Made by a program: the position numbers and the translations under genes. 64,000 bases of DNA from an uncultured Candidatus Poseidoniales archaeon. GTDB taxonomy: Archaea; Thermoplasmatota; Poseidoniia; Poseidoniales; Poseidoniaceae. Positions 7,537 through 58,639 of this stretch are shown in pieces. The notes beneath the pieces were generated by a model. It made no database searches. It saw only the letters and a list, made by a program, of their open reading frames with translations, and was not told the DNA's origin. The stretch lies in assembly GCA_964009815.1 (NCBI GenBank), contig CAXGJQ010000001.1, forward strand, positions 5,332-69,331. Direction: 5' to 3'. Within the stretch, counting starts at the first letter, position 1; each line of letters opens with the position of its first letter.

Positions 7537-7537
7537 G

Positions 7538-8617
7538 TCAAGAACGGCGGAGCGCCCGAAGTTTTGCCTGGAGGGCAGAGGTTCGCTCATCGGTCTGTTC
7601 TGTCATTGAAGGCCCCTGGCTCTTCAGGCGACGGTGCAACATTTCACGATCCCAGACATGGATTTGACCATCTTCGCACCCGATAGCGGCCCGTTCCTGA
7701 GTGCCGTGCATGCTCCGCACTTTGGCAAACTCACCCGTCGCAACTTTTCCGCCTTTATCGGTGGCCCAAACGTTGAGCATACTGCCTTGACCGTCGTCAC
7801 GGGCCAACCACAGGAGTGAGGCTCCGTTTTGCTCCATGGCTTCGGTTTGGGCAGAGACTGGCGCCCCATGCGATGACCAACATTTGTCGCCTTTCTCTGT
7901 TCGACCAACGGCAAGGCCAGCATCGGTGGTTGCCACGTAGCCTTTGACCATGCACGTCAAGTGTTCAATGGCGCCTTCTTCGGTGGAGAGCACCGTTCCA
8001 AGATGTGAAACAACGCTCCCGTCGGTTTGCCCAAACAACCCTTGGGTTCGCCCGGTCGCTCCCGCGGTGGTGGGAGAAGAAGTGGGGGGTTTTGTGTGGG
8101 TGAAGGGCGGAGCGCCTGAGATGTCGAGGTGGCCGCATCGTGGACGCCCCAATCCGGCGAGCAAAGCATCGTCGGTGCAAACGAGAGTCCACGGGCGTTC
8201 ATCCATCCGTTCGACCCAAAGCAAGGTTCCATCCGAAGCGATTCTCCAAATCGCCGATTCAATGAAATCGTTGTGCTCGATATCGTACACCGAAGAGATG
8301 GCCACGACATCGCCTTGCCACCAAATGATGTCGTCAGCGCTTCCCTCGAGGGCCATTGACCACAGCTCTTCACCGGTGTTTCTGTCAAGGGAAACGACGT
8401 GCAAACCACTGGCTACGACGACTTGGGTTTCACTCAAGGCGATGGCGCTAACCCGGTCGTTGGTTTGAGCAGTCCACCGGTGTTCGCCGTCTTCGGCCCA
8501 GTGCGTCAAGCGACCATGCCATCCCCCTGCAAACACATCCTGTTCGGGCGTAAGGTGAACCATGGAAACCGGTTGGTCCAAATTTCGGACCATCCATGTC
8601 GCCCCCTTCAGGTCCAT
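7538..8617 (-). CDS. PQQ-like / WD40-like beta-propeller repeat protein
   Basis: Repeated W/G-rich blades (GDVVAISS..., DGTLLWV..., DGQIHVWD) typical of PQQ-enzyme-repeat beta-propellers. Confidence 0.45.
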   Translation of the reverse strand: MDLKGATWMVRNLDQPVSMVHLTPEQDVFAGGWHGRLTHWAEDGEHRWTAQTNDRVSAIALSETQVVVASGLHVVSLDRNTGEELWSMALEGSADDIIWWQGDVVAISSVYDIEHNDFIESAIWRIASDGTLLWVERMDERPWTLVCTDDALLAGLGRPRCGHLDISGAPPFTHTKPPTSSPTTAGATGRTQGLFGQTDGSVVSHLGTVLSTEEGAIEHLTCMVKGYVATTDAGLAVGRTEKGDKCWSSHGAPVSAQTEAMEQNGASLLWLARDDGQGSMLNVWATDKGGKVATGEFAKVRSMHGTQERAAIGCEDGQIHVWDREMLHRRLKSQGPSMTEQTDERTSALQAKLRALRRS

Positions 8618-8752
8618 GCAACGAGGAAGCCCTCCCCCGACATAAGGAGGTCGCTCGGTAGCGTCAACTTTCCTCGCATTCTGGACCGTTCACTTCCACC
8701 GAGCAAAAAAGAAAGGCTACCGTGAACAACACGGCTTAGGGATGGTGAGCGC

Positions 8753-9220
8753 ATGATAACACGGGAAGGTATTGAAAAGGCACAACAAGCATGGGGAGAA
8801 GGAATTGTAGCGATGGCTTCGGCACACCTCGAGGAGGGCGATTATGTTGGAATCGCTCGAAACCACGTCGAAACCCTGTACGCTTACGGAATGAGCACGG
8901 TTTTGTTCAAGCCAACCCTCGCTGCCGTGGAGCAATTTCGCCCCACCTTCGAGCAAGCACTCTCCTATTTTGTCGCCTCCAACAATGCCTGCCCTGAAGA
9001 CAAAGGATTCGCTATCAAGGGATGGACAAAGGTTCGATTTGAGAACACCGACATCATCCTCGATGGGTCAACCGCTTTGGCCATGGGGAACTATTTCTTC
9101 ACGCCCCCGAAGGGCGAGGAAGTCAAGGTGGAATACACGTTTGGCTACGTGCTGGATGATGCTGGCGCCTTGCGAATCAATCTCCATCACTCCTCCATGC
9201 CAGCCATTGCCGACCAATAG
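8753..9220 (+). CDS. Small conserved protein, NTF2-like/SnoaL-like (DUF4440-like) fold suspected
   Basis: 155 aa, no TM. The pattern AWGEG...F...G...W..V resembles ketosteroid-isomerase-like proteins. Weak call. Confidence 0.3.
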   Translation: MITREGIEKAQQAWGEGIVAMASAHLEEGDYVGIARNHVETLYAYGMSTVLFKPTLAAVEQFRPTFEQALSYFVASNNACPEDKGFAIKGWTKVRFENTDIILDGSTALAMGNYFFTPPKGEEVKVEYTFGYVLDDAGALRINLHHSSMPAIADQ

Positions 9221-9231
9221 GCCCTCTTCCT

Positions 9232-10113
9232 TCACAGCATTGGAATTCGGCGGCGCGGAATAGCAAACGTGAGCACAAAGGCAAGCAAGCCGAAAATGCA
9301 GGCCGACCAGTAATGCCCTACCGTGAAAAAGGCGACCACAGAGGATGTACGAAGCAGAACAATGGAACCCGATTTCAGTGCCCAAACAGAAAACCCAGCC
9401 GCGATGAGGGAGAGGCCCATGAACGCAAAGCCAACCAAAACATACACGGCTTGAGCGCTGGAATCCATCAAAGGATGGTCTTGTTGAGAAGGGGTTCGAT
9501 CCACTGTGCGAATCTCGCATGCTTCGGTGGTTCCTTCACAGGGCTCTTCTGCAAAGGTTTGCTCGGAGGGGAATTCGAAATCAATCGATGTAAATCCAAT
9601 GGGTTCAATCAATGCCGGGGGAGACAAGAGAACGCGGTTGGAATAGACGTCGCGATGGTCGTTGCGATGAACGATGATGTCCACGCGAATCAACCCAGGG
9701 TCCAATTGTTCAAAGGAGAAATATCCCGATTCGTCGGTCACGTTTTCCTCGGAAACCCACATGCTCGAGGCGTCGTCCAACCATGAAAGGTAGACCGTGG
9801 CGTTCACCATGGGTTGTCCAGCCTCATCCACCACCGTTCCGGTGAATGTCGCCGTATCGTCTGGAGCCGTCAACGCCAATCGGTAAACAAATTCATCCGG
9901 TCGCACCAAACCATCGTTGGGAGAAGCATAATCCAAACCGTTGAGAAAACCCAACATGCACGTGAAGAGGAGAAACACAGCGGTCGCTTTTCCGATGGGG
10001 TGGAGATTTGGGTCTTCGATGGTGAGAACAGCCTTGGAAGAGGCAAACAGCATGGGCGTCTCATCGGTCATTTCGTCGAGGTAGGTCGCATCGTCTTCTG
10101 CGCCCTCCGACAT
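9232..10113 (-). CDS. Membrane protein with carboxypeptidase-regulatory-like (CarbopepD_reg) beta-sandwich domain
   Basis: GTVVDEAGQPMVNATVYL...TDESGYFSF motif. Several hydrophobic helices (AVFLLFTCMLGFL, VLVGFAFMGLSLIAAGF, LLAFVLTFAI). Confidence 0.45.
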   Translation of the reverse strand: MSEGAEDDATYLDEMTDETPMLFASSKAVLTIEDPNLHPIGKATAVFLLFTCMLGFLNGLDYASPNDGLVRPDEFVYRLALTAPDDTATFTGTVVDEAGQPMVNATVYLSWLDDASSMWVSEENVTDESGYFSFEQLDPGLIRVDIIVHRNDHRDVYSNRVLLSPPALIEPIGFTSIDFEFPSEQTFAEEPCEGTTEACEIRTVDRTPSQQDHPLMDSSAQAVYVLVGFAFMGLSLIAAGFSVWALKSGSIVLLRTSSVVAFFTVGHYWSACIFGLLAFVLTFAIPRRRIPML

Positions 10114-10134
10114 GGTCTTGCTGAGGCGGGCGCC

Positions 10135-11538
10135 CTACTTGATGTCAATGCGCGAGCCCCAACGGCCACGAAGTTGAGCTAGGCACGCCTTGGTCATCCA
10201 GACGTTCATGTGAATCATTCCATTTTCCCCACGCTCATCTTCCTCCACCATACCTTGGTCATAAATGGCTGAAACAATGCGTTCGCTGGCGTCCGGATGG
10301 GCGGTGGTTGGAGGATGTATGTGGAGGATGAAGGGTGAACCAAAAAGACGCTCGCGGATGAAGTGTTGAAGTTCCTCAACCCCCTCTCCAGTCATTGAGG
10401 AAAGGGCCACTGGGGCCGGAAAGCCACGTTGAGTGACCAGGTCTGAAACCGCTGCTTGTTGAGCGGGTGTGACTTTGTCAATTTTGGTTAACACGACGTA
10501 AGGGGGTCGGTCATCGTCAAGGCCTTCAGTTTCGTGCTCTTGACGTTCGAGCACCTCTCGCCGGGTGGTTTCCAATTTTCGGGTGACCTCGGGTAATGAG
10601 TCAGAGGTGTCAACCAAAATAAGCGTTAAATCGGCATTTAGTGCTTCAGCAATAGTTGCTTTAAATGCCGCTAAGGTTGCATTTGGTATGTTATCAATAA
10701 ATCCAATGGTGTCGGCCAAGAGAATTCGAGGGCTTTTCTCCATCCGCCCCACCGTGGTCTCCAACGTGGAGAACAATTGGTCCTCAACCAGCACCGGTTT
10801 GCCAGATAAGTGCTGGAAAAGTGAGGACTTTCCTGCGTTGGTGTATCCAACAAACCCGACGGTCATCGCCCCACTGCGAATGCGTTGACGGCGGTGTTCA
10901 CGCTGAGCATTGGCGTGTCGCTTTTGCCGACGACGCAGGTTGGTGAGTTCTCGATTTAGATTCGCAATGACGTTTTGGAGGGCCGTGACACCGCCACCAC
11001 CGTACCCTGCTCGCTCACCGGTTGTTTGTTGTTGAGCAACCTCTCTCAGAATGGTGCGGTCTGACTGAAGCTGTGCGATTCGAACCTGCGTTCTTGCTTC
11101 GACCGAAGAGGCGTGCGCCGTGAACAGGGCGAGGAGAAGACGGACTCGATCCCAAACCTCGACTCCGAGGGCTTGATTGACACCAACGAGTTGACGTGGG
11201 GTAGCATTGGTGTGGATGATGGTCAAATCAACGCCCTCCCAAGGATGCCCGGAAAGTGTGCTCCTGCGCTCGTCGGCGATGTCTTCAAGCCGGCCTTTTC
11301 CAAAGTAGGTGCGTGGGTCAACATGGCCGCTTTGCAAAACGGTTTCAACGATGGTTATGCCCATGGTTTCAGCTAAGGCTCTCAATTCAGTCGTGTCTTC
11401 CGAGCCTCGAACCAAAAGGAGCGCTTTACGGCCCTGGTGATTGGTTCTCGCTTCGCCTAGGACCACGCCTCCGCTTCCCGCCACGACGAATGGGTCATCG
11501 GAAGGCTGAGCCATGCCCATCGGGATGGTTAGTCTCAT
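10135..11538 (-). CDS. hflX: GTPase HflX
   Basis: N-terminal HflX domain (LLLVRGSEDTTELRALAETMGITIV), G-domain motifs VGFVGYTNAGKSSLF (G1), LADTIGF (G3), TKID (G4). The ORF-track start at 11865 is an unsupported 5' extension. An internal Met (MRLTIPMG) at 11538 fits HflX length. Confidence 0.85.
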   Translation of the reverse strand: MRLTIPMGMAQPSDDPFVVAGSGGVVLGEARTNHQGRKALLLVRGSEDTTELRALAETMGITIVETVLQSGHVDPRTYFGKGRLEDIADERRSTLSGHPWEGVDLTIIHTNATPRQLVGVNQALGVEVWDRVRLLLALFTAHASSVEARTQVRIAQLQSDRTILREVAQQQTTGERAGYGGGGVTALQNVIANLNRELTNLRRRQKRHANAQREHRRQRIRSGAMTVGFVGYTNAGKSSLFQHLSGKPVLVEDQLFSTLETTVGRMEKSPRILLADTIGFIDNIPNATLAAFKATIAEALNADLTLILVDTSDSLPEVTRKLETTRREVLERQEHETEGLDDDRPPYVVLTKIDKVTPAQQAAVSDLVTQRGFPAPVALSSMTGEGVEELQHFIRERLFGSPFILHIHPPTTAHPDASERIVSAIYDQGMVEEDERGENGMIHMNVWMTKACLAQLRGRWGSRIDIK

Positions 11539-38574: not shown

Positions 38575-41500
38575 TCAGTTGTCAAGCTCGTCTGCAAGGA
38601 CTGAAACGAGAGACGATTGTTCAGCCAATCGCTTGTTCACTTCATCTCGACGTCCCTTGCCAACCAGATACACAACACCCAAGAGTGCGATGGTCAGGAC
38701 GATGACGGCGAATGGAAGGGCCGTCTTGCCCACAACTTCACGAGCAAGGTCAAGGACCGGGCTGTTGGACTGAAGGTCTTCTGGAATCGGTTTGACGTTG
38801 TCTTTCTCATCGGATTCAACGATCTCATTCATTGGGTCGACCACGACATAAACGCCCTTGCTACCGGCTGAAACAGGGTAGAGCAAGTAGAGTTCAATCT
38901 CCTTGGCATCTTCCGTGTCATCTGGTGCAAGCAACGCTCCCACCACTTGGCGCATGACCACGCGTTCTTCTTCGCAACCGTTGTCACGAATTTCCTTCAT
39001 GATGTCAGCATCGTTAGCTTCGCCATATTCGCAAAGAACAATCTCAATGTCAGTGGCATGGACGTTTCCAGTGTTTTGCAAGATGATACCGATAGGAATC
39101 GTCGAGTCAACTTCGCCCGATGTAGATGGTGGCATGATGATCTCCTTGATTTCGAGGTTTGGTGCTCGCAGACGGAGCGTGACAATGAACTCATTCGTGT
39201 CCAAATTCTCACCGTCCCATGCTGGGGAGTCGTCGTGGTCTCCATCGTTCTCCATGTCGCCAAACATGGAAACCACCTTCAGACCAATGCTTCGTGTGTC
39301 GAGTTTGGCGTCGGTGCCAATCTTCACAGCTGCAACGGCCGTGATGGTTTCATACGGAGCCATCTCAGGAAGGCGCCACTCGTCGAGGTCTTCGAGATAG
39401 ATACAGGCGTCTTCGGGGTAGGATGATGCGGTTGACTGCATGGTCATGCAAGATTCTTCGACAACGAGGTCAGCGCTGAGTTGGCGCATGATGAACCAGT
39501 CGACATCCCAACTGCTGAGAACGCTCATTCCAGGCAATTCATTCCATAGGAGTGAATCCCCATCGCGTTGGGCCGTATGGTTGTTCAAGGTTGGAACATC
39601 GGGCACGTTTCCGTTGTTGGTCACGTTGAACATGAAGCGAACGACACGGCCAGGAGCAGAAGTCTTCACCGCATTGTCAACGGTTGGATCCATTGAAATT
39701 TGCATGTCATGGAATTCATCAACGGTGACAGTTAGAACGATGGCATCTCGAATTCGTGTTTCACGACCGCTGGCGTCCGGATAGACTTCTTCGGAGAAGG
39801 CTTGGAGCACGATGGTGTATTCACCTGCTGGCACACGGTTCGGAACGTTCATTTCCACATCAAACGCCTGATAGGTATCTGGTGAGAGTTCTTGGAGAGT
39901 TTCACGAGGAATCTCAATGTCCCAGATGACGTCAACGCCGAAGGCATCGGTCACTCGAGCGAGGCGGAAATCAAACCGGTCGGGTCCATTGCCGTCGTTG
40001 GTGACCGTGATTGGCAAAGTGATCTTTTCGCCAGGATTCACATTCATTGAATTGCCAATCGCCGGGTCAATGCCAGCATCAAGGTCGAAAACGTGCTCTA
40101 CGGTGGTGGACAGGATCTCCGAATCCGAAATTCTCGGATATCCGTCAAGGTAGCCCTTCAGCGTAATGGCGGGCCCAAGGCCGGCCGTGGCGTTGTTTGG
40201 AGCGCAAACGTAGACCGTGATGCGCTTGGTGATTTTCTCTGCGTTTCCTGGGATGGTCCAAGCAATCGGGTCGCCTAGGCCATCGCCTGCATCCGCTGAG
40301 CCAGTAGCGTTATCGAAGTCAACGAGAACAACCCAGTTCTCTTCTCGCCAGGCAGGCATGCCCACACCGTCGGGCTTGGCATCGGGCGCTCCGGGTGTGG
40401 CAAAGACGAGTTCGCCGCTGTCAAAGTTCTTGGTGACGTTGACGTTGTAAGTGGCGCACTCTCCTGGCTTGACCTGTTCGGAGCGGTCATCGGCAGCAAA
40501 GACGATGTTTCCTGTTGAACGGATTGAAACGAACACGCCGAGTTCAAGGATGTCGTAGGTTCCCTTCTCAACGGACTTGATGGGTTCTCCTTCCGACCAA
40601 CCCTTCACGTAGATGACGAACGCTCCTGGATCTTCGGTTGTCGGCACAAAGACCTCGAGGTTCTTTGTAACCGATTGACCCGGGTCCAATTCCACTCGAA
40701 TGGGGAAGTTTACCTGCCATCCGAATGGCAACAACCATTCTTGCTGACCTTCGAGGCTGTTCGGGTCCCAGAAGACGAAGGCGTCGTTGACGTTCCCTGT
40801 GTTGGTGATGGTGATCGAGAAGATAGCGGTGTCGCCTTGTTCAATGTCCGCCATGCTGTGCGAGGTGTCGAGGTTGATTCCGTGAACAACGTCCATCAGT
40901 GTCAAGGTGATGATGTCGTTCTGAATGGCTGGATCTTTGTACGATTGTGCCGTTACACGAACTTCCGCAAGCTCGTCGCCGTTGGCCTGATAGATGGATG
41001 GTGCCTGAACTCGCATGTAGAATCGAATATCTTCGCCGCCTTCGAGGAAAATCGGGGTGTCCGGGAAGATGCTTGAATGGTTGGAGGCGAAGTAGAGGTT
41101 CGCCGTCCAATTCATTGGCACGCCTGAAATGTTCAGTCCATAGGTATCAGCGACCAGGTCTTTTGGACCGGGCGTTGAGTTGTTCATGGTCATGTTGTAG
41201 ATGGTCTGTTGGCCGGGTTCGATGACGTGGTAGAAGGTTTCACCCTCATCAAAGTCAACATCAACTTGACCTGTTAAGACGTGGGAATAGCATATTGTGA
41301 ATCGGTTGTTGTTACCGTCGTCACCGCACTTGTTCGTATCCGACCACGCAATGTGGGCGCCGCTTCCAAGGTCATTGGAAAATGCCGGGGGCATACCGAT
41401 GGAGGGTTGGCGTCCGCTATTTGGCCCGAGTTTATTCGAATTCCACGAGGTTACCGGAACCGCTTCCCACGGGTCGAGGGCCGTCAGGCCATCACCGGTG

Positions 41501-43605
41501 AGGTCGGTTTGATTCAATCGGACGTAGAGAACCTCTTCGTTAGCAGAGAGGTTACCTGAGTCGACCCATGCGATGTGGACATTGTTTTGGTCATCGGTCA
41601 GAAGCGATGGGAACACCGAGTTCCCGGCGTAAGGGGAGGCAGGTGGCAGCCCATTCTTTCCTTCAACGTTGGAAATGGGCGTGTCGTTAATCTTCTTGAT
41701 GGCGTACGTGGAAAGGCCTTCTTCAGCGCCATCCCAAGCACCTGCACCTTGGAGTCGAAGTTTGGTGTAGTAGATTTCGTAGTTGACGTCCTTTTCAAAT
41801 CCGTAATCTCGGCCATCCATCCAAGCGATGTGCGTGTTGCCTTGCATGTCAACACCAATGGAAGGGTGGAAGGAGTAGGCGTCATCAATCGTGACACGGG
41901 TGTCGTTGACCACAACCAAGTGGCCGTCGGCGCCTGCGCCGGTGTCTTCCGCGTAGGTGCCGCCCTGAGCTGTGTGTCCGGGCAACCCAGGTGTGAAACT
42001 TGGGTCGTTGTTCATCTTGGCATATGGGTCAAGAATGGACATGTAGATTTCACGGGAGTTGTTGGTGGAGATGTATACCATGGCTTCGACGAGGAGGGCC
42101 ATTTGGTTGGTTCCGGATCCCGATGGGAATTCGTATGCCTGGCCGCCGGCATCAGTGCTAGCGAGGGTATTACCGGGGCAATTTCGAGACTGAGTGGAGA
42201 CGATGCCGTTGGGGCACTGGACCAAGTCCATGAAGTGGGATTGGATGTTTCCTGCACCACCGTAGCCTTGGCCGTACAAACCAACGGGAACAACGCCGGC
42301 GAGGAGGCAGTTGTCGTGGGCCTCCTGGATGGCCGCTTTGTCATCGGCTTGCTGAGACGGGTCGCCGTCTTTGGGGCCTTCGTCTGAAACGGGAATCACG
42401 ATCTTTGTGGCGTTTGGGTTCCATCGGTGATCGGATTGAGTAGGAGGATTACCGGGAACGTTTCCGGCTGCGTCCTTCCATGAAAGACATGCCCAGTTGG
42501 AACCGGGGCCCCAATCCTCACCAGAATATCCGGAGTAGGTGTTGCCGTTGTAGATGGTCCCGGGCAGTTTGCGAATACCGCCAGAGTCGTCGCCGGGGGT
42601 TTGACCAAGCGGAGTGGTTCGTGGGCCGGTGTTCTGGTTGTATCCCTGGCAGTTGCCTGAGCTGGCTGCGCCGGGAAGGGTGTTGCCCAAACCATAGATG
42701 GTCTCGTAAACGGTCATGTTGCCTTCTTCGAGCATCGGCTTGATGCCTTGGAAGTAAGGGCCGCTTGCGAAGTTGCCGCCGTAAATGACCGTGCAGATGT
42801 CGGCCCATTCCGAATACATCGAACCGGAGGTGTCAACGATAAAGGCCAATTCGACCTTTCCACCGCGAGTGTCATCCCAAGCGATCTGAACGTAATCGTT
42901 GGCATCAACGACAACATCTGGGTGCCCCTTGTGGCCAATGATGGGTGTGAGGAGGGTGTCATCAAAGAGAGTGATGGTTGCACCAGAACCGATGTCGGGC
43001 TGAATCATGGAGTAGTAGATTTGCGGTTGGTTGAAGAAACGCCCCAATTCGTCATAGTTGTCTTGCCAAACGATGTGAACGTTGTTTTGACTGTCGATAT
43101 CGAGAGAGGGCCAGTCTCGGTTTTGAGACCGCCGCGAGATGATGGTGTCATCGATGGCCGTAATGGTGCCGTCGTCCGATGCCATGCCGTCCATTGGAGC
43201 GGCCCATGGCGAGAGTGCCGTGTACATGATGGCGTGTTGACCTGCTTTGTCGGCCCATACGATGTGGATGCGGTCGTATTCGTCGACAGCGAGATCAGGG
43301 TGCCAAACCTTGTGGAGTCCAGAATTGGTAATTTGGGTGGCGTCGATCAATGTCTCACCACGGGGAGACATCATCGAGTAGTAGAGGTGGAGGTTGTTCC
43401 GAGTCCATACCACGTGAACGTTTCCGGAGCTGTCAGAGCCAACAGCTGCTTGCGCATCGGACGATGTGCCACCGTCCACGATTTGGACGGCTTCGGTGAT
43501 TACGACGGTGTTTGCACTCACGGTAACGGAGGCGAGCAACAAGGAAGACATCACGGATAGAACCATGATTGATGCTAGACTGATGGATTTGATTTTTTGA
43601 CGCAT
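38575..43605 (-). CDS. Giant (1676 aa) membrane-anchored surface adhesin-like protein: signal peptide, beta-propeller-like HI(A/V)W-D repeats, VWA-like domain, multiple CARDB/Ig-like modules, C-terminal TM anchor
   Basis: N-terminal signal (SLASIMVLSVMSSLLLASVTVSA). Recurring NVHIVWxD / HIAWxD...YY units. VWA-like MIDAS region ELAFIVDTSGSM. CARDB-like segments (LEIKEIIMPPSTSGEVDSTIPIGIILQNTGNVHATD). C-terminal TM LPFAVIVLTIALLGVVYLVGKGRRD. Confidence 0.8.
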   Translation of the reverse strand: MRQKIKSISLASIMVLSVMSSLLLASVTVSANTVVITEAVQIVDGGTSSDAQAAVGSDSSGNVHVVWTRNNLHLYYSMMSPRGETLIDATQITNSGLHKVWHPDLAVDEYDRIHIVWADKAGQHAIMYTALSPWAAPMDGMASDDGTITAIDDTIISRRSQNRDWPSLDIDSQNNVHIVWQDNYDELGRFFNQPQIYYSMIQPDIGSGATITLFDDTLLTPIIGHKGHPDVVVDANDYVQIAWDDTRGGKVELAFIVDTSGSMYSEWADICTVIYGGNFASGPYFQGIKPMLEEGNMTVYETIYGLGNTLPGAASSGNCQGYNQNTGPRTTPLGQTPGDDSGGIRKLPGTIYNGNTYSGYSGEDWGPGSNWACLSWKDAAGNVPGNPPTQSDHRWNPNATKIVIPVSDEGPKDGDPSQQADDKAAIQEAHDNCLLAGVVPVGLYGQGYGGAGNIQSHFMDLVQCPNGIVSTQSRNCPGNTLASTDAGGQAYEFPSGSGTNQMALLVEAMVYISTNNSREIYMSILDPYAKMNNDPSFTPGLPGHTAQGGTYAEDTGAGADGHLVVVNDTRVTIDDAYSFHPSIGVDMQGNTHIAWMDGRDYGFEKDVNYEIYYTKLRLQGAGAWDGAEEGLSTYAIKKINDTPISNVEGKNGLPPASPYAGNSVFPSLLTDDQNNVHIAWVDSGNLSANEEVLYVRLNQTDLTGDGLTALDPWEAVPVTSWNSNKLGPNSGRQPSIGMPPAFSNDLGSGAHIAWSDTNKCGDDGNNNRFTICYSHVLTGQVDVDFDEGETFYHVIEPGQQTIYNMTMNNSTPGPKDLVADTYGLNISGVPMNWTANLYFASNHSSIFPDTPIFLEGGEDIRFYMRVQAPSIYQANGDELAEVRVTAQSYKDPAIQNDIITLTLMDVVHGINLDTSHSMADIEQGDTAIFSITITNTGNVNDAFVFWDPNSLEGQQEWLLPFGWQVNFPIRVELDPGQSVTKNLEVFVPTTEDPGAFVIYVKGWSEGEPIKSVEKGTYDILELGVFVSIRSTGNIVFAADDRSEQVKPGECATYNVNVTKNFDSGELVFATPGAPDAKPDGVGMPAWREENWVVLVDFDNATGSADAGDGLGDPIAWTIPGNAEKITKRITVYVCAPNNATAGLGPAITLKGYLDGYPRISDSEILSTTVEHVFDLDAGIDPAIGNSMNVNPGEKITLPITVTNDGNGPDRFDFRLARVTDAFGVDVIWDIEIPRETLQELSPDTYQAFDVEMNVPNRVPAGEYTIVLQAFSEEVYPDASGRETRIRDAIVLTVTVDEFHDMQISMDPTVDNAVKTSAPGRVVRFMFNVTNNGNVPDVPTLNNHTAQRDGDSLLWNELPGMSVLSSWDVDWFIMRQLSADLVVEESCMTMQSTASSYPEDACIYLEDLDEWRLPEMAPYETITAVAAVKIGTDAKLDTRSIGLKVVSMFGDMENDGDHDDSPAWDGENLDTNEFIVTLRLRAPNLEIKEIIMPPSTSGEVDSTIPIGIILQNTGNVHATDIEIVLCEYGEANDADIMKEIRDNGCEEERVVMRQVVGALLAPDDTEDAKEIELYLLYPVSAGSKGVYVVVDPMNEIVESDEKDNVKPIPEDLQSNSPVLDLAREVVGKTALPFAVIVLTIALLGVVYLVGKGRRDEVNKRLAEQSSLVSVLADELDN

Positions 43606-52039: not shown

Positions 52040-53350
52040 TCAAATTTTGAGATTGGCTTGACGGGCAAGAAGATGAATTTGCATGCTGTGTTCCACCATC
52101 GCAGCATTCGCCCACGCTTGGTCAAAGTCGGCCCCTACGGCATAAGCGCCGTTTCCGCGAACCACAACACAGCGCATGCCTCCTTGATTGAGGGCTTCTG
52201 CTACCTGACGAAGGTAATCCTCGGGGTGGTCAGGGTCAGGGTCAACGATGATGATCTTTCCAATGTGCTGCTTTCCAACCTCGTCGATGGGCGTCAACAA
52301 CACCAGGTCTTTTTCGCAACTCGCTGCAGTGGTATGGGGGCCATGCATATGGATGACGGCGGCGGGACCGCCGGTCACCATTGATACGGAGGCGAGAACG
52401 ACTTCAAGAGCGTGCCAATCGGGAGGTGCGCCCCGAGGAGAGGTTGAGCCGAGAGGAGCTGCACACAAACTCCGTTCATTCATTCGAGGGAGGGTGACCA
52501 TGTGTTTGGTGGAAACCATCACACCTGGCTGTTCTGGATGAATCATCGCCAAAGAGCCCATGGTGGCCCGAACCAAATGTTCGCGGTCAAGTTGCCGTCC
52601 GAGACGGACAAAGTCGGATACGACATAGGGGGGGATCACGATGTTGTCTTCCACAAGTGGTGGCATGGGGGGCTCCTCCAATTGTTCGATGACTTCGGTT
52701 GCACCGACAACCGATTGGCGGAGGCGTGCATTCTCCATGTGAAGTCGTTCGAGTTCCGCTTCCTTTTCAGCAAGGATGTCCAACGTCGCTTGGTCAACTT
52801 CTCCACTTCGTTCCTCGACGACCGGGGCTTCCTCAACGGGTTCTGGTTCAGCAGGGGACTCTGGTTCAGGCGTCGCTTCTTCAGCGGGTTCAGCAGCCGG
52901 AGCTTCCTCAACGGGTTCTGGTTCGGCGGGAGATTCTGGTTCAGGTGTCGGTTCTTCAGCGGGCTCCGGTTCGGACTCAGCCGGTTCGGCTTGAACGGGT
53001 TCTGCTTCCTCTTCGTGAGCTTTCTCAACCGGCTCAGACTTCGATGCTGGTGGAGCACTCGGGGGACCTGAGGGCGGGCCGCTTGGGGGGCCTGAGGGCG
53101 GACCAGATGGAGGGCCCGAGGGTGGGCCAGTCGGTGGGCCGGTTGGTGGACCGGTTGGTGGGCCGCTGGGCTCATTGGGCTTCTCATCTTCAACGGGTGC
53201 CGGTTCAGCCTCTTCTGGAGGTTGTTCAATGGAGCCTATGTCGCCAAAAGCGTCGCCCAACATGTTATCCAGTTGAGATTGTTCTTCATCGTCACGGGCT
53301 TTTTCTGCAGAAGTTTTTGGTTTCCCCATGGTGGCACCCAATTTAGCCAC
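52040..53350 (-). CDS. Class II aldolase/adducin-domain protein with about 200-aa disordered N-terminal extension (GPPT/GPPS and PEPE repeats, short coiled coil)
   Basis: C-terminal about 190 aa: HMHGPHTTAAS...VVVRGNGAYAVGADFDQAWANAAMVEHSMQIHLLAR resembles class II aldolase/MtnB/fuculose-P aldolase folds. N-terminus: (PPTGPP)x3(SGPP)x5 then EPTPEPESPAEPEPVEEAP x2. Confidence 0.55.
   Translation of the reverse strand: MAKLGATMGKPKTSAEKARDDEEQSQLDNMLGDAFGDIGSIEQPPEEAEPAPVEDEKPNEPSGPPTGPPTGPPTGPPSGPPSGPPSGPPSGPPSGPPSAPPASKSEPVEKAHEEEAEPVQAEPAESEPEPAEEPTPEPESPAEPEPVEEAPAAEPAEEATPEPESPAEPEPVEEAPVVEERSGEVDQATLDILAEKEAELERLHMENARLRQSVVGATEVIEQLEEPPMPPLVEDNIVIPPYVVSDFVRLGRQLDREHLVRATMGSLAMIHPEQPGVMVSTKHMVTLPRMNERSLCAAPLGSTSPRGAPPDWHALEVVLASVSMVTGGPAAVIHMHGPHTTAASCEKDLVLLTPIDEVGKQHIGKIIIVDPDPDHPEDYLRQVAEALNQGGMRCVVVRGNGAYAVGADFDQAWANAAMVEHSMQIHLLARQANLKI
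52828..53175. repeat. Low-complexity coding repeats: a 75-bp unit x2 (PEPE-rich) and 9/12-bp GPPx units
   Basis: cttcctcaacgggttctggttc...ttcttcagcgggt is repeated at 52828 and 52903. ggtgggccggttggtggaccggttggtgggcc units lie at about 53058-53175. Confidence 0.7.
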
Positions 53351-53470: not shown

Positions 53471-54376
53471 CTACTCTTCTTCATCGAAGAATTGCTTCTT
53501 CTGCACAATGGATGGTGCAGGCAAAAGATACCACATGATAGGCAAGATGAGGAGTGAGTCCAGATTTTTCCCGAGTTGAATATCAAACGTTGATTCGAAC
53601 GCGATGAATGACCGAGAATCTCTGGTCCCGTTAGCAGGGACATTTTCGGCTACTGAGGTTCGATTCTCTGGCTCAACCAGTCCCAAATCATACCCCGAAA
53701 AGTCCGCTTCCAGTTGAACTCCAAGCCAAATGAAGGAGAAATCCGATGACGAGTTGGTGTGGACAAAGGAAACAGTCTCGATGTTCGCGCCGGGCGTGTT
53801 GGTGGCGGTGGAGTCTTCTTCTTCATCACCACCCCCACTCAATTCCAACATGTAACACGCTGGGAAGATGACCGAGAAAGCGACAAGGGTGCCCAAGAAA
53901 GCGAGCGAACGAACATGATGGCGCCAGCGGAAGGACGACAACATCAGCAGCTCACTCAACACCAAGAGAGCCAATCCAAGTTTGATGGACTGCCGTCCAA
54001 AAGCAAGCCATTCTCGTTCCTCATTCTCGCCTTGCTCATCGGCCTCACCTGACTCATTCGGCGAATCTGGCTCATCCTCCGTGGCTGTGTCGTTGGAGGA
54101 AGCCGTATCGTCGACCGGAACCGCTGCATCGCCGTCCCGTTCAAGTGCATAGAAGAAAAAGGCCGTCGCCCGTTTAATTTCAATGTCGATCAGGGTCTGG
54201 TCTTTGTTGATGGCGATCAGCGAATGGGCTTCGGTTGGAGCAGGTTTCCCTTCGGTGTAGATGCCTTCAGCCGTGGCCACAAGCCATGCTGAGATGAACA
54301 CGTGCACTGCCAAAAACACCGTCACGGAAAGACGGATGATGCCAAAGGCCCGGTGAGGTGGTGGCCGTGGCAACAC
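53471..54376 (-). CDS. Hypothetical membrane protein with acidic loop
   Basis: TM helices (IIRLSVTVFLAVHVFISAWLV, LGLALLVLSELLMLSSF, LAFLGTLVAFSVIFPACYML, LLILPIMWYLL) and a D/E-rich segment. The stop abuts the tRNA-Asp 3' end. Confidence 0.4.
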   Translation of the reverse strand: MLPRPPPHRAFGIIRLSVTVFLAVHVFISAWLVATAEGIYTEGKPAPTEAHSLIAINKDQTLIDIEIKRATAFFFYALERDGDAAVPVDDTASSNDTATEDEPDSPNESGEADEQGENEEREWLAFGRQSIKLGLALLVLSELLMLSSFRWRHHVRSLAFLGTLVAFSVIFPACYMLELSGGGDEEEDSTATNTPGANIETVSFVHTNSSSDFSFIWLGVQLEADFSGYDLGLVEPENRTSVAENVPANGTRDSRSFIAFESTFDIQLGKNLDSLLILPIMWYLLPAPSIVQKKQFFDEEE

Positions 54377-54406: not shown

Positions 54407-57400
54407 TCACTCGTTCTCAGTTCGGCGGTTGCCAGCAACTGCAGCAAGGCCAATGAGAGCGATGACCGTGAGTGGGGAGACGAAGGGCAAGAGGCCTGAA
54501 TCTTCAGCGGCTTCTTCTGCCGTCTCAGGTTCATCCACTTCTTCGGCGGTGTTGTCGTCGCCCGTTTCTGTGTTGTCAGGGAATCCGAGGTCGGACGTGT
54601 CCGCACCTGCGTCTTCAAGCACCTGCGAGAGTTCACCAAGGTCGTGGTCTTCAACGTCCACGATGTCTTCAAGGTCGGAAAAGTCAGCCATTTCTTGCTG
54701 AGCTGCTTGTGCAGGAGCGCCAGTGATGTAGCGGATGCTAGCGAAGGTCATTGGTCGGTCTTCGCTGTAGCCGGTCGTGGTTGGTCCAGCGATGACGTAG
54801 CCGTTCTCGTCCTCGTCCCATGCGTAAAGGCCAACACCCACGATGGTGGCCTGTTCATCGCTCCAAAGAGGAGCCCACATGCCGTCAACGTAGGGGAATT
54901 CTGGAACTTCATTCTCTGCAACATCTTCGAAGGTTGCACCAATGTTCTCGCCAAAGGCTTGGAGAACATCTCCAAGACCTGATTCAGCAAGCGCTTCACC
55001 GATGGTCATGAGTTCGTCGCTGGGTTCGCGGGCTTCTTCGAACTCAATGCATTCACTCTGTGAATCAAAGGGCTCGCTTTGGCCGGCTTGTGTAAGGTGA
55101 ACTTCCAAGCAGTATTCTCCTGGACCGGAAACGTCAACGATTTCCTCAGAGTAGAGCGTTGATTCATCGGCCCACTCCTCGAAGCCTGTGGTCACCATGG
55201 TGTTGGCCCCGTCGGTGACGTCCATCAGTTGCCACGACATCGTAACGTCATCATATTCGCCGTAGCCGGCTTCGGCAACGACGCGGAGTTGGTTATCCTC
55301 TTCGAGGTACACGTGGGTGCCCCAAACTTCAGGGCCCATGTAATGACTACTGCAAATCTCAGTGGCCTCTACGAGCAACGTGCCATCGGCTTCAGAAATG
55401 TGCCCTCCAGAACACATTTCCATGCCGCCGTAGGTGGACGGTGCCATGACTTCAGAGGTGTAGGTAGTCCACTGATCGCTTCTCTCGTCGTCTACTGTAA
55501 TATCGCAGCCCCATTTGGCGCAAACCATGAGGTCCTGAGTTGCCATGAGGGCGTTCCCGTCTCCGTCGTTGATGTAAGCGTCCATCATGAAGAAGATGGC
55601 CTCGCCTTCATCAGAACCATCCGGGCAGTCAACGGTCCCGTCATTGAGGAGTTCAAAGGAAATGGAGTTGGTGTAATCGGCGCAATAGAATGTTTGCCCG
55701 TCGTTTTCATCGTACTCATCGCCTCCATCTTCGCAATTGGCCACGCCGTCGTTGACGTACTGCCATGGAATCTGGTCATAATTTTCGCACATGAACCATT
55801 TTCCTTCGTTGTCAGCTGGTTCATCCGAACCATCCGCGCAATCGCTGCTTCCATCGTTGACGAGTTCAAAGGAGATATCCATGCCGTCATGGCACGTATA
55901 GGTGGTCGTCTGGGTGTTGGCAAACTCATCGGAGCCATCATCGCAATCGTCCCAACCATCGTTGGCGTTGTCAATGGTCAGTTCTTGATACATGCCATCG
56001 TACTCGCACATGATGGTGGGTGAAGTTTCGAATCCAAAGACATCGATATCCATATGTTGACCAAATCCGTAATAGTAGTCGCCAGATTCCCAGTCCTCAT
56101 TCATTTGACCACGAAGATAGAAGTCCATTTCATCTGAACCATCGCTGCAATCTTCGTTTCCGTTGTTCATTTGCCATTCATAGATCATCTCACCACTGTC
56201 GCACATGACCATGTCATCGTCATGGTAGTGGTCATCTTCATCACCACCTACGCCGAAGATGTTCTCGAATATGTCTGCGAAGGAATCTTCGAGTTCGGCC
56301 TCAAAGTCTTCTGCAACCGCCTCGCCAAAAGATTGGCTGGCGTGGGTAATGACGTTGCCCATCATGATGAACATGACTGGGTTTCCAGGGGGGCATGTGT
56401 CACAGGGCGTGGCATCGATGACCGTACCGTCGCCGAGGTCAACTTCCAAGGTCTCGTCCGAGCGCATGTTGAAGTTGACATCTTCCATGTTGGCCTCGCC
56501 TTCGTAGTCGCCTTCGTTGGTGAGTTCGTCGCTGATGCTGATATCGAATTGACCTTCATCAAATCCAAACTCTTCCATGGGCAAGCCACTGAGATAAACG
56601 TTGTAATCGGCCGAACCGATGTAGGTGCCATCAAGCATTCCGCACAAATCTTCGACTTCTACTTCGCCGCCTTCTCCGTATACGCCGACATCGGATGGGT
56701 CGTCGATGCAATCCCAGTCCGTGTTGTCGTTTGCAGCCGCCTCAACGTAAATCGGGCTAGGGGCGCCCAAGCGCCATTCTGCATCAGAGCCAATGGAATA
56801 ACTGAATTCAATTCCAGTGTCGAAGTCAATGTTCAACTGCTCGCCACCGCCCTCGACCATAATGTCAATTCCGAGGTTCATGTCGTTGGAGATCATCATA
56901 TCGAAATCCATGTCTGCTCCAAGAAGTTGATACTGGTCGTTGAGGTACTCCGTGTAGAGCATGTCAACCGTCAAGACATTTTCAGCTTCGGCAATGACGT
57001 CGATATCAAAGCCATTTGGGTCGCTGCCAAAGGTGGTTTCTGACCAGTCCGTCATGATGACGGCGTTGGAAAGGAGACCGTGGCGAAGCACCACGTCGCT
57101 GGTGCGGCTCCAAACTTGCACGTCGTTGCCGTCCAGGTCTTGGATGGTCTGAACCGAGATGTCTTCGGTTTGGTGAACGTAGACGTTTGAGGAACCCGTG
57201 GTCAACTGACCAAGGTCGAGGTTGAACCCTGCGCCGTCAGCGTCTTCCATGATTTCAGAGAACAATTCTTGAATGTCCAAACCTGTGACGTTTTGCAAAT
57301 CACTGTCGAGGCTTGTCCAGTCGTATTCTACACCGTAGTAATACTCGGAGGCTTCAGCAGGGACTGCGGAAACGGTGGTTAGGGGGGTGATTGCTGCAAG

Positions 57401-57451
57401 CAAAAGAGCGGTTAGCAATAGGGCTGGTGAGGTTCGTCGCAACGTAGACAT
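54407..57451 (-). CDS. Large (1014 aa) highly acidic secreted/anchored protein with LDL-receptor class A-like (CxDGSDE) modules and C-terminal hydrophobic anchor
   Basis: Signal peptide ALLLTALLLAAITPLTTVSA. At least five Cys-rich modules ending DCSDGSDE / CDDGSDE / CADGSDE / CEDGGDE / CPDGSDE, which is the calcium-cage consensus of LDLa domains. pI clearly acidic. C-terminus LLPFVSPLTVIALIGLAAVAGNRRTENE. Confidence 0.75.
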   Translation of the reverse strand: MSTLRRTSPALLLTALLLAAITPLTTVSAVPAEASEYYYGVEYDWTSLDSDLQNVTGLDIQELFSEIMEDADGAGFNLDLGQLTTGSSNVYVHQTEDISVQTIQDLDGNDVQVWSRTSDVVLRHGLLSNAVIMTDWSETTFGSDPNGFDIDVIAEAENVLTVDMLYTEYLNDQYQLLGADMDFDMMISNDMNLGIDIMVEGGGEQLNIDFDTGIEFSYSIGSDAEWRLGAPSPIYVEAAANDNTDWDCIDDPSDVGVYGEGGEVEVEDLCGMLDGTYIGSADYNVYLSGLPMEEFGFDEGQFDISISDELTNEGDYEGEANMEDVNFNMRSDETLEVDLGDGTVIDATPCDTCPPGNPVMFIMMGNVITHASQSFGEAVAEDFEAELEDSFADIFENIFGVGGDEDDHYHDDDMVMCDSGEMIYEWQMNNGNEDCSDGSDEMDFYLRGQMNEDWESGDYYYGFGQHMDIDVFGFETSPTIMCEYDGMYQELTIDNANDGWDDCDDGSDEFANTQTTTYTCHDGMDISFELVNDGSSDCADGSDEPADNEGKWFMCENYDQIPWQYVNDGVANCEDGGDEYDENDGQTFYCADYTNSISFELLNDGTVDCPDGSDEGEAIFFMMDAYINDGDGNALMATQDLMVCAKWGCDITVDDERSDQWTTYTSEVMAPSTYGGMEMCSGGHISEADGTLLVEATEICSSHYMGPEVWGTHVYLEEDNQLRVVAEAGYGEYDDVTMSWQLMDVTDGANTMVTTGFEEWADESTLYSEEIVDVSGPGEYCLEVHLTQAGQSEPFDSQSECIEFEEAREPSDELMTIGEALAESGLGDVLQAFGENIGATFEDVAENEVPEFPYVDGMWAPLWSDEQATIVGVGLYAWDEDENGYVIAGPTTTGYSEDRPMTFASIRYITGAPAQAAQQEMADFSDLEDIVDVEDHDLGELSQVLEDAGADTSDLGFPDNTETGDDNTAEEVDEPETAEEAAEDSGLLPFVSPLTVIALIGLAAVAGNRRTENE

Positions 57452-57556
57452 CGGTCACACACGTGAAACTATGCGATTTAAGAGTATTGCACTGAGATTT
57501 TATCGTCTTCCCCTATAAATTCCGGATTTTGGAGAGTGATGTCCGGTTTCGCCCAA

Positions 57557-58639
57557 TCATTCGCCATGATTTTTTGTAAAGAGTGTGGGTAGTTGGTTAT
57601 TCTTCTGATACGCCTTGTTGAAGATTTTCCGAGCGAGTTTGTAGTCGAGGCGGCGGCGTCTTTCACCTGCTTTTGTATTCCCCATGAACGCCGTCAGAAA
57701 CACGTCATGCGTTGCTTCTCTGTAGTTGTCAATGATACGATTGGCTTCAGCGATGACGTCATCAAGGAGATTTCCTTCCAATTCAATTTCGATATAGGTA
57801 AGGTGCCGACTGCTCACTTTGATGTTGCTTCGGTCGTATCCCAGCTCTTCCCCACGACAGAATTTAATTCGCATGGAACCATCTTCTCTGGTGCCGTCAA
57901 CGGCACGATAACCGAGGGTTCCCTCGGGTGCGTTGAATTTCATTGGGGTCAATTTGGATGGGTTTTGAGCGGTTTGATTATGAGCGCTTCGAAGTTGGTT
58001 ATAACCACCGAGAAGTGTATCGTTTTTCCACACCTCATTAAGAGGATTTGATGCAGAGAAAATCATCACGCAAACTGGATGTTCCGTGTCGTCAAACGGG
58101 TTGTCTTCGAGAATGGTCACGGAATGGAGTTTGTTTTTCCAGTGGGGCAAATCATCGAGATCTTGGATACCCGACTCGGGAACAATCCAAATGGAGTCGT
58201 CGTATTTTGCCAAGGTTTGCTCTATGGCCAACTTGAACAAATCATCCAATACATTCAGGCGAGAATCATCGAGGGTCGGAATGAATCCCGGCCCGAAGTA
58301 CTCCACCATGGGTGATTTCATGCGTTTTGCAGAGTTCTTTGCAAGATAGGGTGGATTGGTCAGCACAAACGCTTGCTCGTGCCGAATAACACGTCGGATT
58401 GAGTCGTTTGGTTCACCCCACTGCTTTGAGGCACAGATGTTCTCATCGATGTCGTGCCCTCGGATTTCAAAGCCCATCTGTTGAGCAAGTTCCAGCAGGT
58501 GCCCGTCTCCTGCAAATGGGTCAACGCATAGCTTGTATTGGTTGCTCAATGATTCGATATGAGCTCGAATATGGGGGCGCAGCCAAACAGAATCTCGCGT
58601 GAAAAATTGGCCGAGGTCGCGCTTGGTTTTTTCTGACAT
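57557..58639 (-). CDS. N6-adenine DNA methyltransferase, gamma class (TaqI/Eco57I-like) with C-terminal target-recognition region; no adjacent endonuclease
   Basis: Motif X GQFFTRDSV, motif I CVDPFAGDGHLL, motif IV FVLTNPPYL, in gamma-class order. About 150-aa C-terminal region. Confidence 0.8.
   Translation of the reverse strand: MSEKTKRDLGQFFTRDSVWLRPHIRAHIESLSNQYKLCVDPFAGDGHLLELAQQMGFEIRGHDIDENICASKQWGEPNDSIRRVIRHEQAFVLTNPPYLAKNSAKRMKSPMVEYFGPGFIPTLDDSRLNVLDDLFKLAIEQTLAKYDDSIWIVPESGIQDLDDLPHWKNKLHSVTILEDNPFDDTEHPVCVMIFSASNPLNEVWKNDTLLGGYNQLRSAHNQTAQNPSKLTPMKFNAPEGTLGYRAVDGTREDGSMRIKFCRGEELGYDRSNIKVSSRHLTYIEIELEGNLLDDVIAEANRIIDNYREATHDVFLTAFMGNTKAGERRRRLDYKLARKIFNKAYQKNNQLPTLFTKNHGE

Follow-up and report, generated by a model that had tools for sequence, protein, structure and literature searches.

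The sequence analysed here is a stretch of 64,000 nucleotides from an uncultured Candidatus Poseidoniales archaeon (contig CAXGJQ010000001.1), and the term window refers to this whole stretch at its full length. The subject of the analysis is a gene at 54407..57451 (-), for which the listing of open reading frames (ORFs) gives an ATG start and a product of 1014 aa. According to the ORF listing and the homologues, it encodes a hyper-acidic surface protein, exported and C-terminally anchored, of a Poseidonia-type (Marine Group IIa) archaeon. From its N-terminus, the protein can be divided into a signal peptide, a conserved N-terminal domain, a region containing five modules of the LDL-receptor class A (LDLa, or LA) type, two beta-sandwich domains, a conserved C-terminal domain, a disordered linker, and a hydrophobic anchor. 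Sequence comparison and predicted structure indicate that the modules are LDLa homologues of an unusual two-Cys class, and that they form the variable part of the protein and not its core.

Asp and Glu make up 12.6% and 10.7% of the residues, Lys and Arg 0.2% and 1.4%, and the computed pI is approximately 4.05. With 23% D+E and 2% K+R, it exceeds in acidity every other ORF of 150 aa or more in the window (the runner-up reaches 20%), as the initial annotation had stated along with the position and length of the gene. The acidic run cited there, EDDHYHDDDMVMCDSGE, is likewise present in the protein. All 20 Cys residues fall into 10 sequence-adjacent pairs, most of which are invariant across the family, a pattern consistent with an oxidising environment outside the cell. 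Only one N-x-S/T sequon, N54-V-T (aa 54-56, N54 being invariant), is found in the 1014 aa, where about 6 would be expected from the composition; for an archaeal surface protein this depletion is marked. Upstream of the gene, direct reading of the intergenic sequence reveals a TTTATA hexamer at 57514..57519 (-), 63-68 nt from the ATG, which may tentatively be taken as the archaeal TATA box of the gene.

Two-cysteine modules of the LDLa type

Five motifs of the form C-x-DG[SG]DE occur between aa 434 and 615, namely DCSDGSDE (aa 434-441), CDDGSDE (503-509), CADGSDE (538-544), CEDGGDE (573-579), and CPDGSDE (609-615); all of those quoted previously were thus confirmed in the translation. When the protein's own residues were shuffled 20,000 times, the pattern C.DG[SG]DE appeared with a mean of 0.00065 and a maximum of 1, compared with 5 in the actual sequence. 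Canonical LA modules contain six Cys, which form the three disulfides C1-C3, C2-C5, and C4-C6, and the calcium ligands of LA5 of LDLR are Asp at C4+1, Asp at C5-1, and the Asp-Glu of SDE. Each archaeal module has exactly two Cys (417/435, 482/503, 520/538, 555/573, and 590/609). Alignments to PDB sequences establish the register: the first Cys corresponds to C2 of LA and the second to C5, the C4 position is occupied by Asn (in "VNDG"), and C1, C3, and C6 are without counterpart. With two Cys per module, one disulfide at most can be formed (C2-C5), and the earlier proposal of a Cys spacing compatible with the three-disulfide LDLa fold therefore does not hold. All of the acidic ligand residues named above for LA5 are present in modules 2, 3, and 5.

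An exhaustive phmmer search of 1.84 billion representative proteins returned 352 matches at E up to 1e-3, and those outside the family of this gene are of two kinds. The first kind comprises hyper-acidic proteins (D+E 20-30%, K+R 1-3%) with 2-19 two-Cys VNDG modules, mostly with a signal peptide or lipobox (LSGCLG) at one end and an LPGF or LPAPG motif, a transmembrane helix, and an RR tail at the other; where named, they belong to Poseidoniales, Thermoplasmatota, or 'Euryarchaeota archaeon' metagenome-assembled genomes (MAGs). The second kind comprises classical Cys-rich LDLa proteins of bacteria and eukaryotes, for example 'LDL receptor domain-containing protein [Myxococcales bacterium]'. 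From the retrieved proteins, 503 unique two-Cys modules were collected, with a Cys-Cys spacing of 17 or 18 in 89% and the consensus ..F.CdDG..Ipf..VNDG.eDC.DGSDE. This class is referred to as N-type, with the pattern F-x-C-x-DG-x-x-I-x-x-x-x-VNDG-x-x-DC-x-DGSDEP. A hidden Markov model (HMM) of it was built from 103 modules of the first kind of protein, all from Poseidoniales proteins unrelated to the gene under study.

Scored one by one on Pfam PF00057 and on this N-type HMM, the modules differ in quality. Module 1 (aa 413-441; 56129..56215, -), C417...MNNGNEDC435SDGSDE, reaches 19.1 bits on PF00057 alone and 38.3 bits on the N-type HMM; it is the most widely kept module of the family, with invariant C417 and C435 and with Asn for Asp at C4+1. 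Module 2 (aa 478-509; 55925..56020, -), C482...NANDGWDDC503DDGSDE, is atypical in its Cys-Cys spacing of 20 and scores 14.8 and 32.8 bits. The best match is module 3 (aa 516-544; 55820..55906, -), YTC520HDGMDISFELVNDGSSDC538ADGSDEP, with 27.6 bits on PF00057, 25.8 on PF12999, and 57.1 on the N-type HMM; it has the full acidic set of calcium ligands and aligns residue by residue to LA1 of LDLR and to glucosidase II beta (GII-beta). Module 4 (aa 551-579; 55715..55801, -), FMC555ENYDQIPWQYVNDGVANC573EDGGDE, has Asn for Asp at C5-1 and scores 18.3 bits on PF00057 and 39.2 bits on the N-type HMM. Module 5 (aa 586-615; 55607..55696, -), FYC590ADYTNSISFELLNDGTVDC609PDGSDE, again has the full acidic ligand set, together with invariant C590 and C609, and scores 22.3 bits on PF00057, 22.8 on PF12999, and 43.5 on the N-type HMM.

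Homology to LDLa is supported by several independent comparisons. On the whole protein, PF00057 (Ldl_recept_a) matches in four stretches and reaches 29.5 bits (E 8.9e-7; cut-off 24.1), and the modules scored singly cover approximately profile positions 7-35 of 37. A search of PDB sequences with the module region retrieves LDLR (E 4e-9) and GII-beta (E 3e-7), as well as VLDLR and LRP2. When the N-type profile was aligned by hhalign to a canonical six-Cys LA profile from LRP-like proteins, a probability of 98% and an E of 2e-13 were obtained over 30 columns, with both Cys in register. The LA-type fold is seen in the predicted model only: in the AlphaFold2 (AF2) model computed from the 85-sequence family alignment, the modules have pLDDT values of about 80-86, and the top Foldseek matches of this model in PDB are the LA modules of VLDLR and LRP2 (E 3e-5 to 1e-3, 26-34% identity). 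As far as sequence and model go, the modules are genuine LDLa homologues, as had been proposed, with a predicted calcium cage and a C2-C5 Cys pair, and are not three-disulfide modules.

Within the LDLa family, the profile scores place these modules in the N-type class. All five score 33-57 bits on the N-type HMM versus 15-29 on a canonical LA HMM. The same preference is displayed by mouse GII-beta (5f0e_B), whose module 1 scores 54.0 bits on the N-type HMM versus 24.5 on the canonical one and whose module 2 scores 27.2 versus 12.8; LA1, LA3, and LA4 of LDLR favour the canonical HMM (43-48 bits versus 26-39 on the N-type HMM). PF12999 (glucosidase II beta-like) reaches 29.8 bits on the protein, below its cut-off of 34.9, and covers only profile positions 40-111 of 176. 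Moreover, a GII-beta-like gene model from a bird, P0226 (repeats of FTCLDGSSTIAFEWVNDDYCDCRDGSDEP), was retrieved by the archaeal query with a phmmer E of 1.3e-13. By these scores, the modules are of a class shared with many other Poseidoniales surface proteins and are closest to those of GII-beta. The bird entry itself (XP_052536633.1, Tympanuchus pallidicinctus, a RefSeq 'uncharacterized protein') contains four near-identical repeats of the GII-beta-type module and looks like a duplicated or mis-assembled PRKCSH gene model.

Conserved terminal domains and variable cassette

The search for relatives gave an identical protein (P0001) and 235 homologues; those with names come from Poseidonia, Poseidoniaceae, Poseidoniales, or Thermoplasmatota MAGs. 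Alignments were made of 23 and then 85 members, motifs were counted over 120 homologues, and 39 more distant members (18-45% identity) were also considered. The best-conserved part is the N-terminal domain (aa 30-400; 56252..57364, -), delimited by the AF2 domain model and the family alignment, which has 55-97% identity to the query and includes a long run starting SEYYYGVEYDW. Its Cys pairs 248/270 and 350/353 are invariant, and the loop between Cys248 and Cys270 is variable. Modelled alone by AF2 (pLDDT 85.4, pTM 0.76), the domain is predicted to consist of five antiparallel strands, each of 25-29 residues, with a smaller sheet and, at its C-terminal end, a helix of 40 residues. No Pfam, NCBIfam, or PDB-sequence match was obtained for it, and Foldseek gave no significant match in PDB or BFVD, the best (E 5.8e-3, TM < 0.16) being generic beta-meanders such as BamA. 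When a profile of the 39 distant members was compared with PDB sequences, the LA region alone was matched.

The second conserved part, recognised from invariant columns in 85 sequences, is the C-terminal alpha/beta domain (aa 810-957; 54581..55024, -), which reads PEFPYVDGMWAPLWS...ATIVGVGxYAWD...GP.TTGYS. It has a moderately confident AF2 model, has no Pfam or PDB-sequence match, and is kept even in the minimal member P0109. Between the modules and this domain lie two predicted beta-sandwich domains of Ig/FN3-like type (aa 620-805; 55037..55594, -; AF2 pLDDT approximately 80-85), with the conserved Cys pairs 644/649, 680/700, and 781/801. The Foldseek matches of aa 620-805 are tandem Ig-like domains of GH2 enzymes, cytokine receptors, RbmA, and transglutaminase barrels, and the region is absent from short family members. 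A D/E/T-rich linker, predicted to be disordered (aa 958-983; 54503..54580, -; pLDDT < 30) and variable in sequence across the family, leads from the C-terminal domain to the anchor.

In contrast to the terminal domains, the modules were found to vary greatly, the strict motif count ranging from 0 to 7 among the 120 homologues. P0109, with 621 aa, consists of the N-terminal domain, the C-terminal domain, and the tail alone, and in P0095, P0105, and P0116 a different beta-rich insert replaces both the LA modules and the Ig-like domains. Among the 39 distant members, LDLa matches are present in 21, SBP_bac_3 in 2, and CUB in 2. Even within one genome (L003), tandem paralogues at 4949-7828 and 8001-11123 have different cassettes: one is of 959 aa with LDLa-like modules, and in the other (P0096, 1040 aa) another kind of beta-rich insert stands at the place of module 1. 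By these comparisons the modules are a variable cassette, not the core of the protein, and the earlier description of an exoprotein built around LDLa modules is not supported. No tandem repeats at the DNA level were detected in the gene by TRF, indicating that the modules are old. Variation is also seen within the N-terminal domain, where the distant member P0185 has a complete amino-acid-type ABC solute-binding domain (aa 224-480; SBP_bac_3, 81.6 bits) at the position of the variable, disulfide-bounded 248-270 loop; P0176, which is 72% identical, is without this insert, and P0306 was noted in the same connection; CUB domains occur in two other distant members.

Hydropathy analysis identified two hydrophobic segments only, aa 7-31 and aa 984-1008, the latter followed by NRR-TENE, in agreement with the N-terminal signal peptide and the C-terminal hydrophobic anchor that had been proposed. 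The signal peptide (aa 1-29; 57365..57451, -) reads MSTLRR-TSPALLLTALLLAAITPL-TTVSA and is followed by VP, and its cleavage site was placed between TTVSA and VPAE by the -3/-1 rule. V27, A29, and P31 are conserved. The RR pair is not, as homologues have KR, AR, HR, or RK at this place; the signal peptide is therefore probably of the Sec type, and a Tat-type signal was rejected on the same ground.

The C-terminal anchor (aa 984-1014; 54410..54502, -), defined by hydropathy and family comparison, consists of GLLPFVSP, a predicted transmembrane helix (LTVIALIGLAAVAG), NRR, and TENE. The tail pattern AEDxGLLPFxSPLTVxAMIGLAAxAGNRR is conserved in the family, 141 relatives having PFxSP and 10 having PAxSP. 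In other N-type proteins and in distant members of the family, this position is taken by LPGF, LPGM, LPGV, or LPAPG. Several of the PGF-tailed N-type or distant proteins score 16-21.5 bits on TIGR04126, below its cut-off of 24.5, and one fragment was named 'PGF-CTERM protein' by JGI. The sole sorting-domain match of the tail studied here is to PEF-CTERM (TIGR03024), at 13.5 bits and below the 23-bit cut-off. A PGF-CTERM-like tail, as claimed initially, is thus partly upheld: the positional resemblance is evident in a Pro-containing motif, a transmembrane helix, and a basic cluster following a linker, but neither a TIGR04126 match nor a PGF tripeptide is present. From these sequence features, we read the tail as a diverged PGF-CTERM derivative.

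The locus and its neighbours

When one genome per GTDB species was scanned, at least 84 species genomes of Poseidoniales proved to have a relative, among them the original MG-II chromosome CM001443.1, and the gene was present in every Poseidoniaceae-type genome recovered. The order of the locus is fixed, running from a TYW2/TRM5 methyltransferase through (M24 peptidase), GATase, the gene itself, a membrane protein of about 300 aa, and aldolase_II to RFC. Neighbours were counted by local tblastn on 84 loci. The GATase is ahead of the gene in 67 of 71 loci, and the membrane protein follows directly in all 56 loci with sufficient room, lying 32-76 nt downstream in 64 of 66. In the window, this conserved neighbour is a 301-aa membrane protein (53471..54376, -) separated from the surface-protein gene by a 30-nt gap. 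It has 3-4 hydrophobic segments, an acidic insert, and the motifs SAWLV, YTEGxPxP, and FSGYDLG, without a match to any Pfam or NCBIfam family, and is probably a functional partner of the surface protein. Its identification as a sortase or archaeosortase was rejected, as no HMM match was found and its single Cys is not conserved.

On the other side of the gene lies a putative DNA methyltransferase of 360 aa (57557-58639, -), with 21.9 bits on N6_N4_Mtase (aa 24-70) against a cut-off of 26.7. The orphan methyltransferase reported beside the gene is therefore loosely right, in that a methyltransferase-like ORF does adjoin it, but the match is sub-threshold. In 16 of 71 related loci, each belonging to the closest clade, the ORF comes after the GATase and before the surface-protein gene, which makes it a clade-specific insertion; the idea that it is unique to the source genome was rejected accordingly.

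Several other proteins in the window deserve mention. The class II aldolase/adducin-like protein (52040-53350, -) has its Pfam domain at aa 247-427 only, preceded by approximately 245 aa of Pro/Glu/Ala-rich low-complexity sequence with PPTGPPSG and EPEPAEEP repeats; homologues are of 232 aa (L003, L004) or 457 aa (L001), so that the extension or the start site varies. A second large exported protein (38575-43605, -; 1676 aa) with a signal peptide, 14 Cys, and CARDB, DUF7507, and NPCBM-associated domains is a candidate envelope protein or adhesin. A 293-aa protein (9232-10113, -) with a CarboxypepD_reg/Big_1-like domain and a C-terminal hydrophobic segment ending PRRRIPML appears to be a small anchored surface protein.

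Proposed role and comparison with known systems

The reading that we favour, and hold to be rather probable, is that the protein is a C-terminally anchored display scaffold, specific to the order Poseidoniales (Marine Group II, MGII), with a calcium-loaded stalk or binding array. The N-terminal signal peptide would export the protein, and the C-terminal transmembrane helix and basic tail, which may descend from a PGF-CTERM-type sorting signal, would hold it on the cell. The ectodomain would then comprise a distal, beta-rich N-terminal 'head' of 370 aa, a membrane-proximal C-terminal alpha/beta domain, and an exchangeable cassette between the two, represented here by five minimal calcium-cage modules of LDLa type and two Ig-like beta-sandwiches. 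The Ca2+ concentration of seawater is about 10 mM. At this concentration every cage would be metal-loaded, and with one disulfide per module Ca2+ would be the main stabiliser in place of the missing disulfides. The array of modules may thus make up a stiff, acidic stalk and may also provide sites at which proteins bind in the presence of Ca2+, as they do in LDLR and GII-beta. More generally, the family may serve as a scaffold displaying different binding modules at the cell surface, whether LA-like, solute-binding, CUB, or other beta-domains, and the surface protein would probably work with the always-adjacent membrane protein of about 300 aa.

Several observations weigh against this interpretation. 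The PF00057 cut-off of 24.1 bits is passed singly by module 3 only, the other four being below it, and one ligand Asp is replaced by Asn in module 1 (at C4+1) and likewise in module 4 (at C5-1). We infer Ca2+ binding and disulfide pairing from homology and from an AF2 model that is free of ions, and the full-length model has a pTM of 0.47, with uncertain relative packing of the domains. The aromatic residue responsible for lysine packing in LDLR, at C4-2, is not conserved, an aromatic being present instead at C4-4, as in GII-beta; given this shift, and given that the modules are dispensable in some members, lysine capture of the LDLR type is not to be assumed. The very high conservation of the N-terminal domain is unusual for an adhesin. 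TIGR04126 (PGF-CTERM) is silent on the full protein as well as on the isolated tail, which lacks the PGF tripeptide, and no archaeosortase candidate was detected within the 64-kb window, the rest of the genome not having been searched. Additionally, no paper on any member of the family was found in the literature searched.

The main rival explanation, which we regard as unlikely, is that the protein is the main surface-layer (S-layer) protein of Poseidoniaceae, with the N- and C-terminal domains providing lattice and anchoring contacts and the Ca2+ modules and Ig-like domains forming a canopy, Ca2+ stabilising the assembly as it does in other S-layers. The S-layer glycoprotein of Haloferax has the same general layout, and a signal peptide, a PGF-like anchor after an acidic/Thr linker, extreme acidity, Ig-like domains, and a length of approximately 1000 aa would all suit such a role. 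The gene occupies a single conserved housekeeping locus in the loci examined, with its own putative TATA box, and the strong conservation of both terminal domains could reflect lattice contacts. However, known S-layer structures are absent from the top 50 Foldseek PDB matches of either model, and the 1014 aa contain one N-glycosylation sequon. A length that varies between 621 and about 1120 aa among members, cassettes that can be exchanged, and the existence of tandem paralogues would be odd for a lattice protein, and the 1676-aa CARDB/DUF7507 exoprotein in the same window is an equally good candidate.

A further explanation, to which we assign a low probability, corresponds to the calcium-dependent ligand capture suggested in the initial annotation. 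The protein would be a substrate- or particle-capture receptor whose LA-like modules bind basic peptides, proteins, or partner hydrolases in a Ca2+-dependent manner, feeding the protein-degrading heterotrophy of MGII. The LA modules of LDLR-family receptors and of GII-beta bind proteins in a Ca2+-dependent way; in distant family members, amino-acid-type solute-binding or CUB domains take the place of the cassette or are added to it; and other Poseidoniales surface proteins stack 13-19 modules of the same type. According to two reports, MGII are considered to attach to particles and to degrade proteins (PMC6461757; PMC6336850), which would be consistent with such a receptor. Nevertheless, orthologues with 0-2 modules keep the rest of the protein, indicating that the modules are not its conserved function; the position of the aromatic that contacts ligand in LDLR is not conserved, and no ligand or partner is identifiable from the sequence.

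Recent horizontal acquisition of the modules, or of the whole gene, from a eukaryote or a eukaryote-associated organism is very improbable. LDLa is best known from metazoa, and the closest non-archaeal relative of this module type is the eukaryotic GII-beta. On the other hand, the gene is vertically conserved and keeps one locus in at least 84 species genomes of Poseidoniales (identities of 38% to 100%), and its GC content (about 0.50-0.54) resembles that of its neighbours. The N-type is a large, diverged class with 503 unique copies in many different Poseidoniales proteins, and the modules are without repeats at the nucleotide level. The suggestion of a eukaryote-associated source is accordingly not supported, and the statement that prokaryotic LDLa modules are rare proved overstated, since NCBI already names proteins of Thermoplasmatota and Myxococcales as LDL receptor domain-containing. 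An assignment of the CxDGSDE segments to another Ca2+ repeat (thrombospondin type 3, dockerin, or EF-hand-like) or to an artefact of composition is scarcely credible: in its favour are the 23% D+E of the protein, the frequent occurrence of acidic Dx[DN]xDG-like loops, and a weak TSP_3 match (E 6.9e-4) in one distant member, but the Pfam models of thrombospondin type 3, dockerin, and EF-hand are silent up to E 10 on the whole protein and on single modules, and the motif count against shuffling, the 98% in-register profile match to canonical LA, and VLDLR as the top structural match already contradict it. The refuting result that the initial annotation had named thus did not arise as regards family identity.

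A broader proposal, which we consider doubtful as a whole, is that the VNDG modules are an old archaeal branch of LDLa held by Ca2+ and not by three disulfides, with the pan-eukaryotic PRKCSH module, and not the metazoan receptor type, as nearest relative, and that Poseidoniales employ them for Ca2+-dependent docking in general. Anchored scaffolds bearing 1 to about 19 such modules, among them the present family with its N-terminal domain of unrecognised fold, would recruit partners, such as secreted hydrolases, to the cell surface, with a scaffold logic analogous to that of cohesin and dockerin. If this were so, the LDLa module known as 'metazoan' would have its roots in the surface biology of prokaryotes, and the envelope organisation of the most abundant archaea of the surface ocean would become testable.

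No archaea are more abundant in surface seawater than the Poseidoniales (Marine Group II), which are uncultured. The cell envelope governs particle attachment, recognition by viruses, and access to high-molecular-weight substrates, and to our knowledge almost nothing is known of it in these archaea. The gene described here pairs a domain of unrecognised fold with a stripped-down calcium-cage module that is widely used in the surface proteins of the lineage. The module suggests how far the LDLa fold may be reduced, to one disulfide and Ca2+, and its archaeal link to the GII-beta type bears on the origin of LDLa. In the literature searched, no paper was found that links LDLa to Poseidoniales, describes this family, or reports an archaeosortase in these archaea. 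Automatic annotation has already produced the label 'low-density lipoprotein receptor class A repeat-containing protein [Candidatus Thermoplasmatota archaeon]', and the bare presence of LDLa in these archaea is for this reason not new. As far as we can tell, the new elements are the recognition of a module class with one disulfide and Asn at C4, its closeness to the GII-beta type, and its occurrence as a variable cassette within a Poseidoniales surface scaffold that is conserved but otherwise unrecognisable. With such labels already assigned automatically in Thermoplasmatota and Myxococcales, and with a function that is only proposed, the findings are of interest without being startling.

Comparison with canonical LA modules (PF00057) indicates that the C-terminal calcium-cage half, x-[CN]-DG-x-x-DC-x-DGSDE, is preserved in register, together with C2 and C5 at an LDLR-like spacing of 17-18 and the acidic Ca2+ ligands. 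Both types are modules of approximately 30-35 residues arranged in tandem with short linkers. The archaeal modules differ in having two Cys instead of six, C1, C3, C4, and C6 being absent, and hence one possible disulfide versus three; they have Asn at C4 and an aromatic at C4-4 instead of C4-2, and they occur in an archaeal host within a novel domain architecture.

The likeness to the LDLa-like modules in the G2B domain of GII-beta (PRKCSH, 5f0e_B), to which the N-terminal part of PF12999 corresponds, is closer, both sharing the pattern F-x-C-x-DG-x-x-IPF-x-x-VND-x-x-DC-x-DGSDEP with Asn at C4, and module 1 of GII-beta scores 54.0 bits on the archaeal N-type HMM, next to 57.1 for the best module of the query. 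Unlike the archaeal modules, those of GII-beta have an extra Cys pair (C-D-C ... C). The archaeal protein is without EF-hand, coiled-coil, or MRH domains (no Pfam match to EF-hand or MRH was found in the 1014 aa), and GII-beta is a soluble binder of GII-alpha in the lumen of the endoplasmic reticulum and not a cell-surface protein.

Among Poseidoniales surface proteins, the multi-module P0142, P0147, and P0157 (1334-1592 aa) share with this protein the N-type two-Cys module, C-terminal PGF-like anchors, and extreme acidity (DE 24-30% and KR 1-3% in those proteins). They differ in having 13-19 modules, a lipobox (LSGCLG), and N-terminal thrombospondin-like DxDxDG repeats, and in being without the conserved N- and C-terminal domains of the family. 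With P0150, in the same size range, they form a set with lipobox, 13-19 N-type modules, DxDxDG repeats, and true PGF-type tails, and they resemble scaffold proteins.

Finally, the substrates of PGF-CTERM and archaeosortase A, such as the S-layer glycoprotein of Haloferax volcanii, resemble this protein in their signal peptide and large acidic ectodomain with Ig-like domains, and in an acidic/Thr-rich linker that precedes a Pro-containing motif, a transmembrane helix, and an Arg cluster at the extreme C-terminus. The protein of the window departs from them in its tail motif, which is LLPF-VSP instead of PGF and without a TIGR04126 match, and in having only one N-glycosylation sequon.

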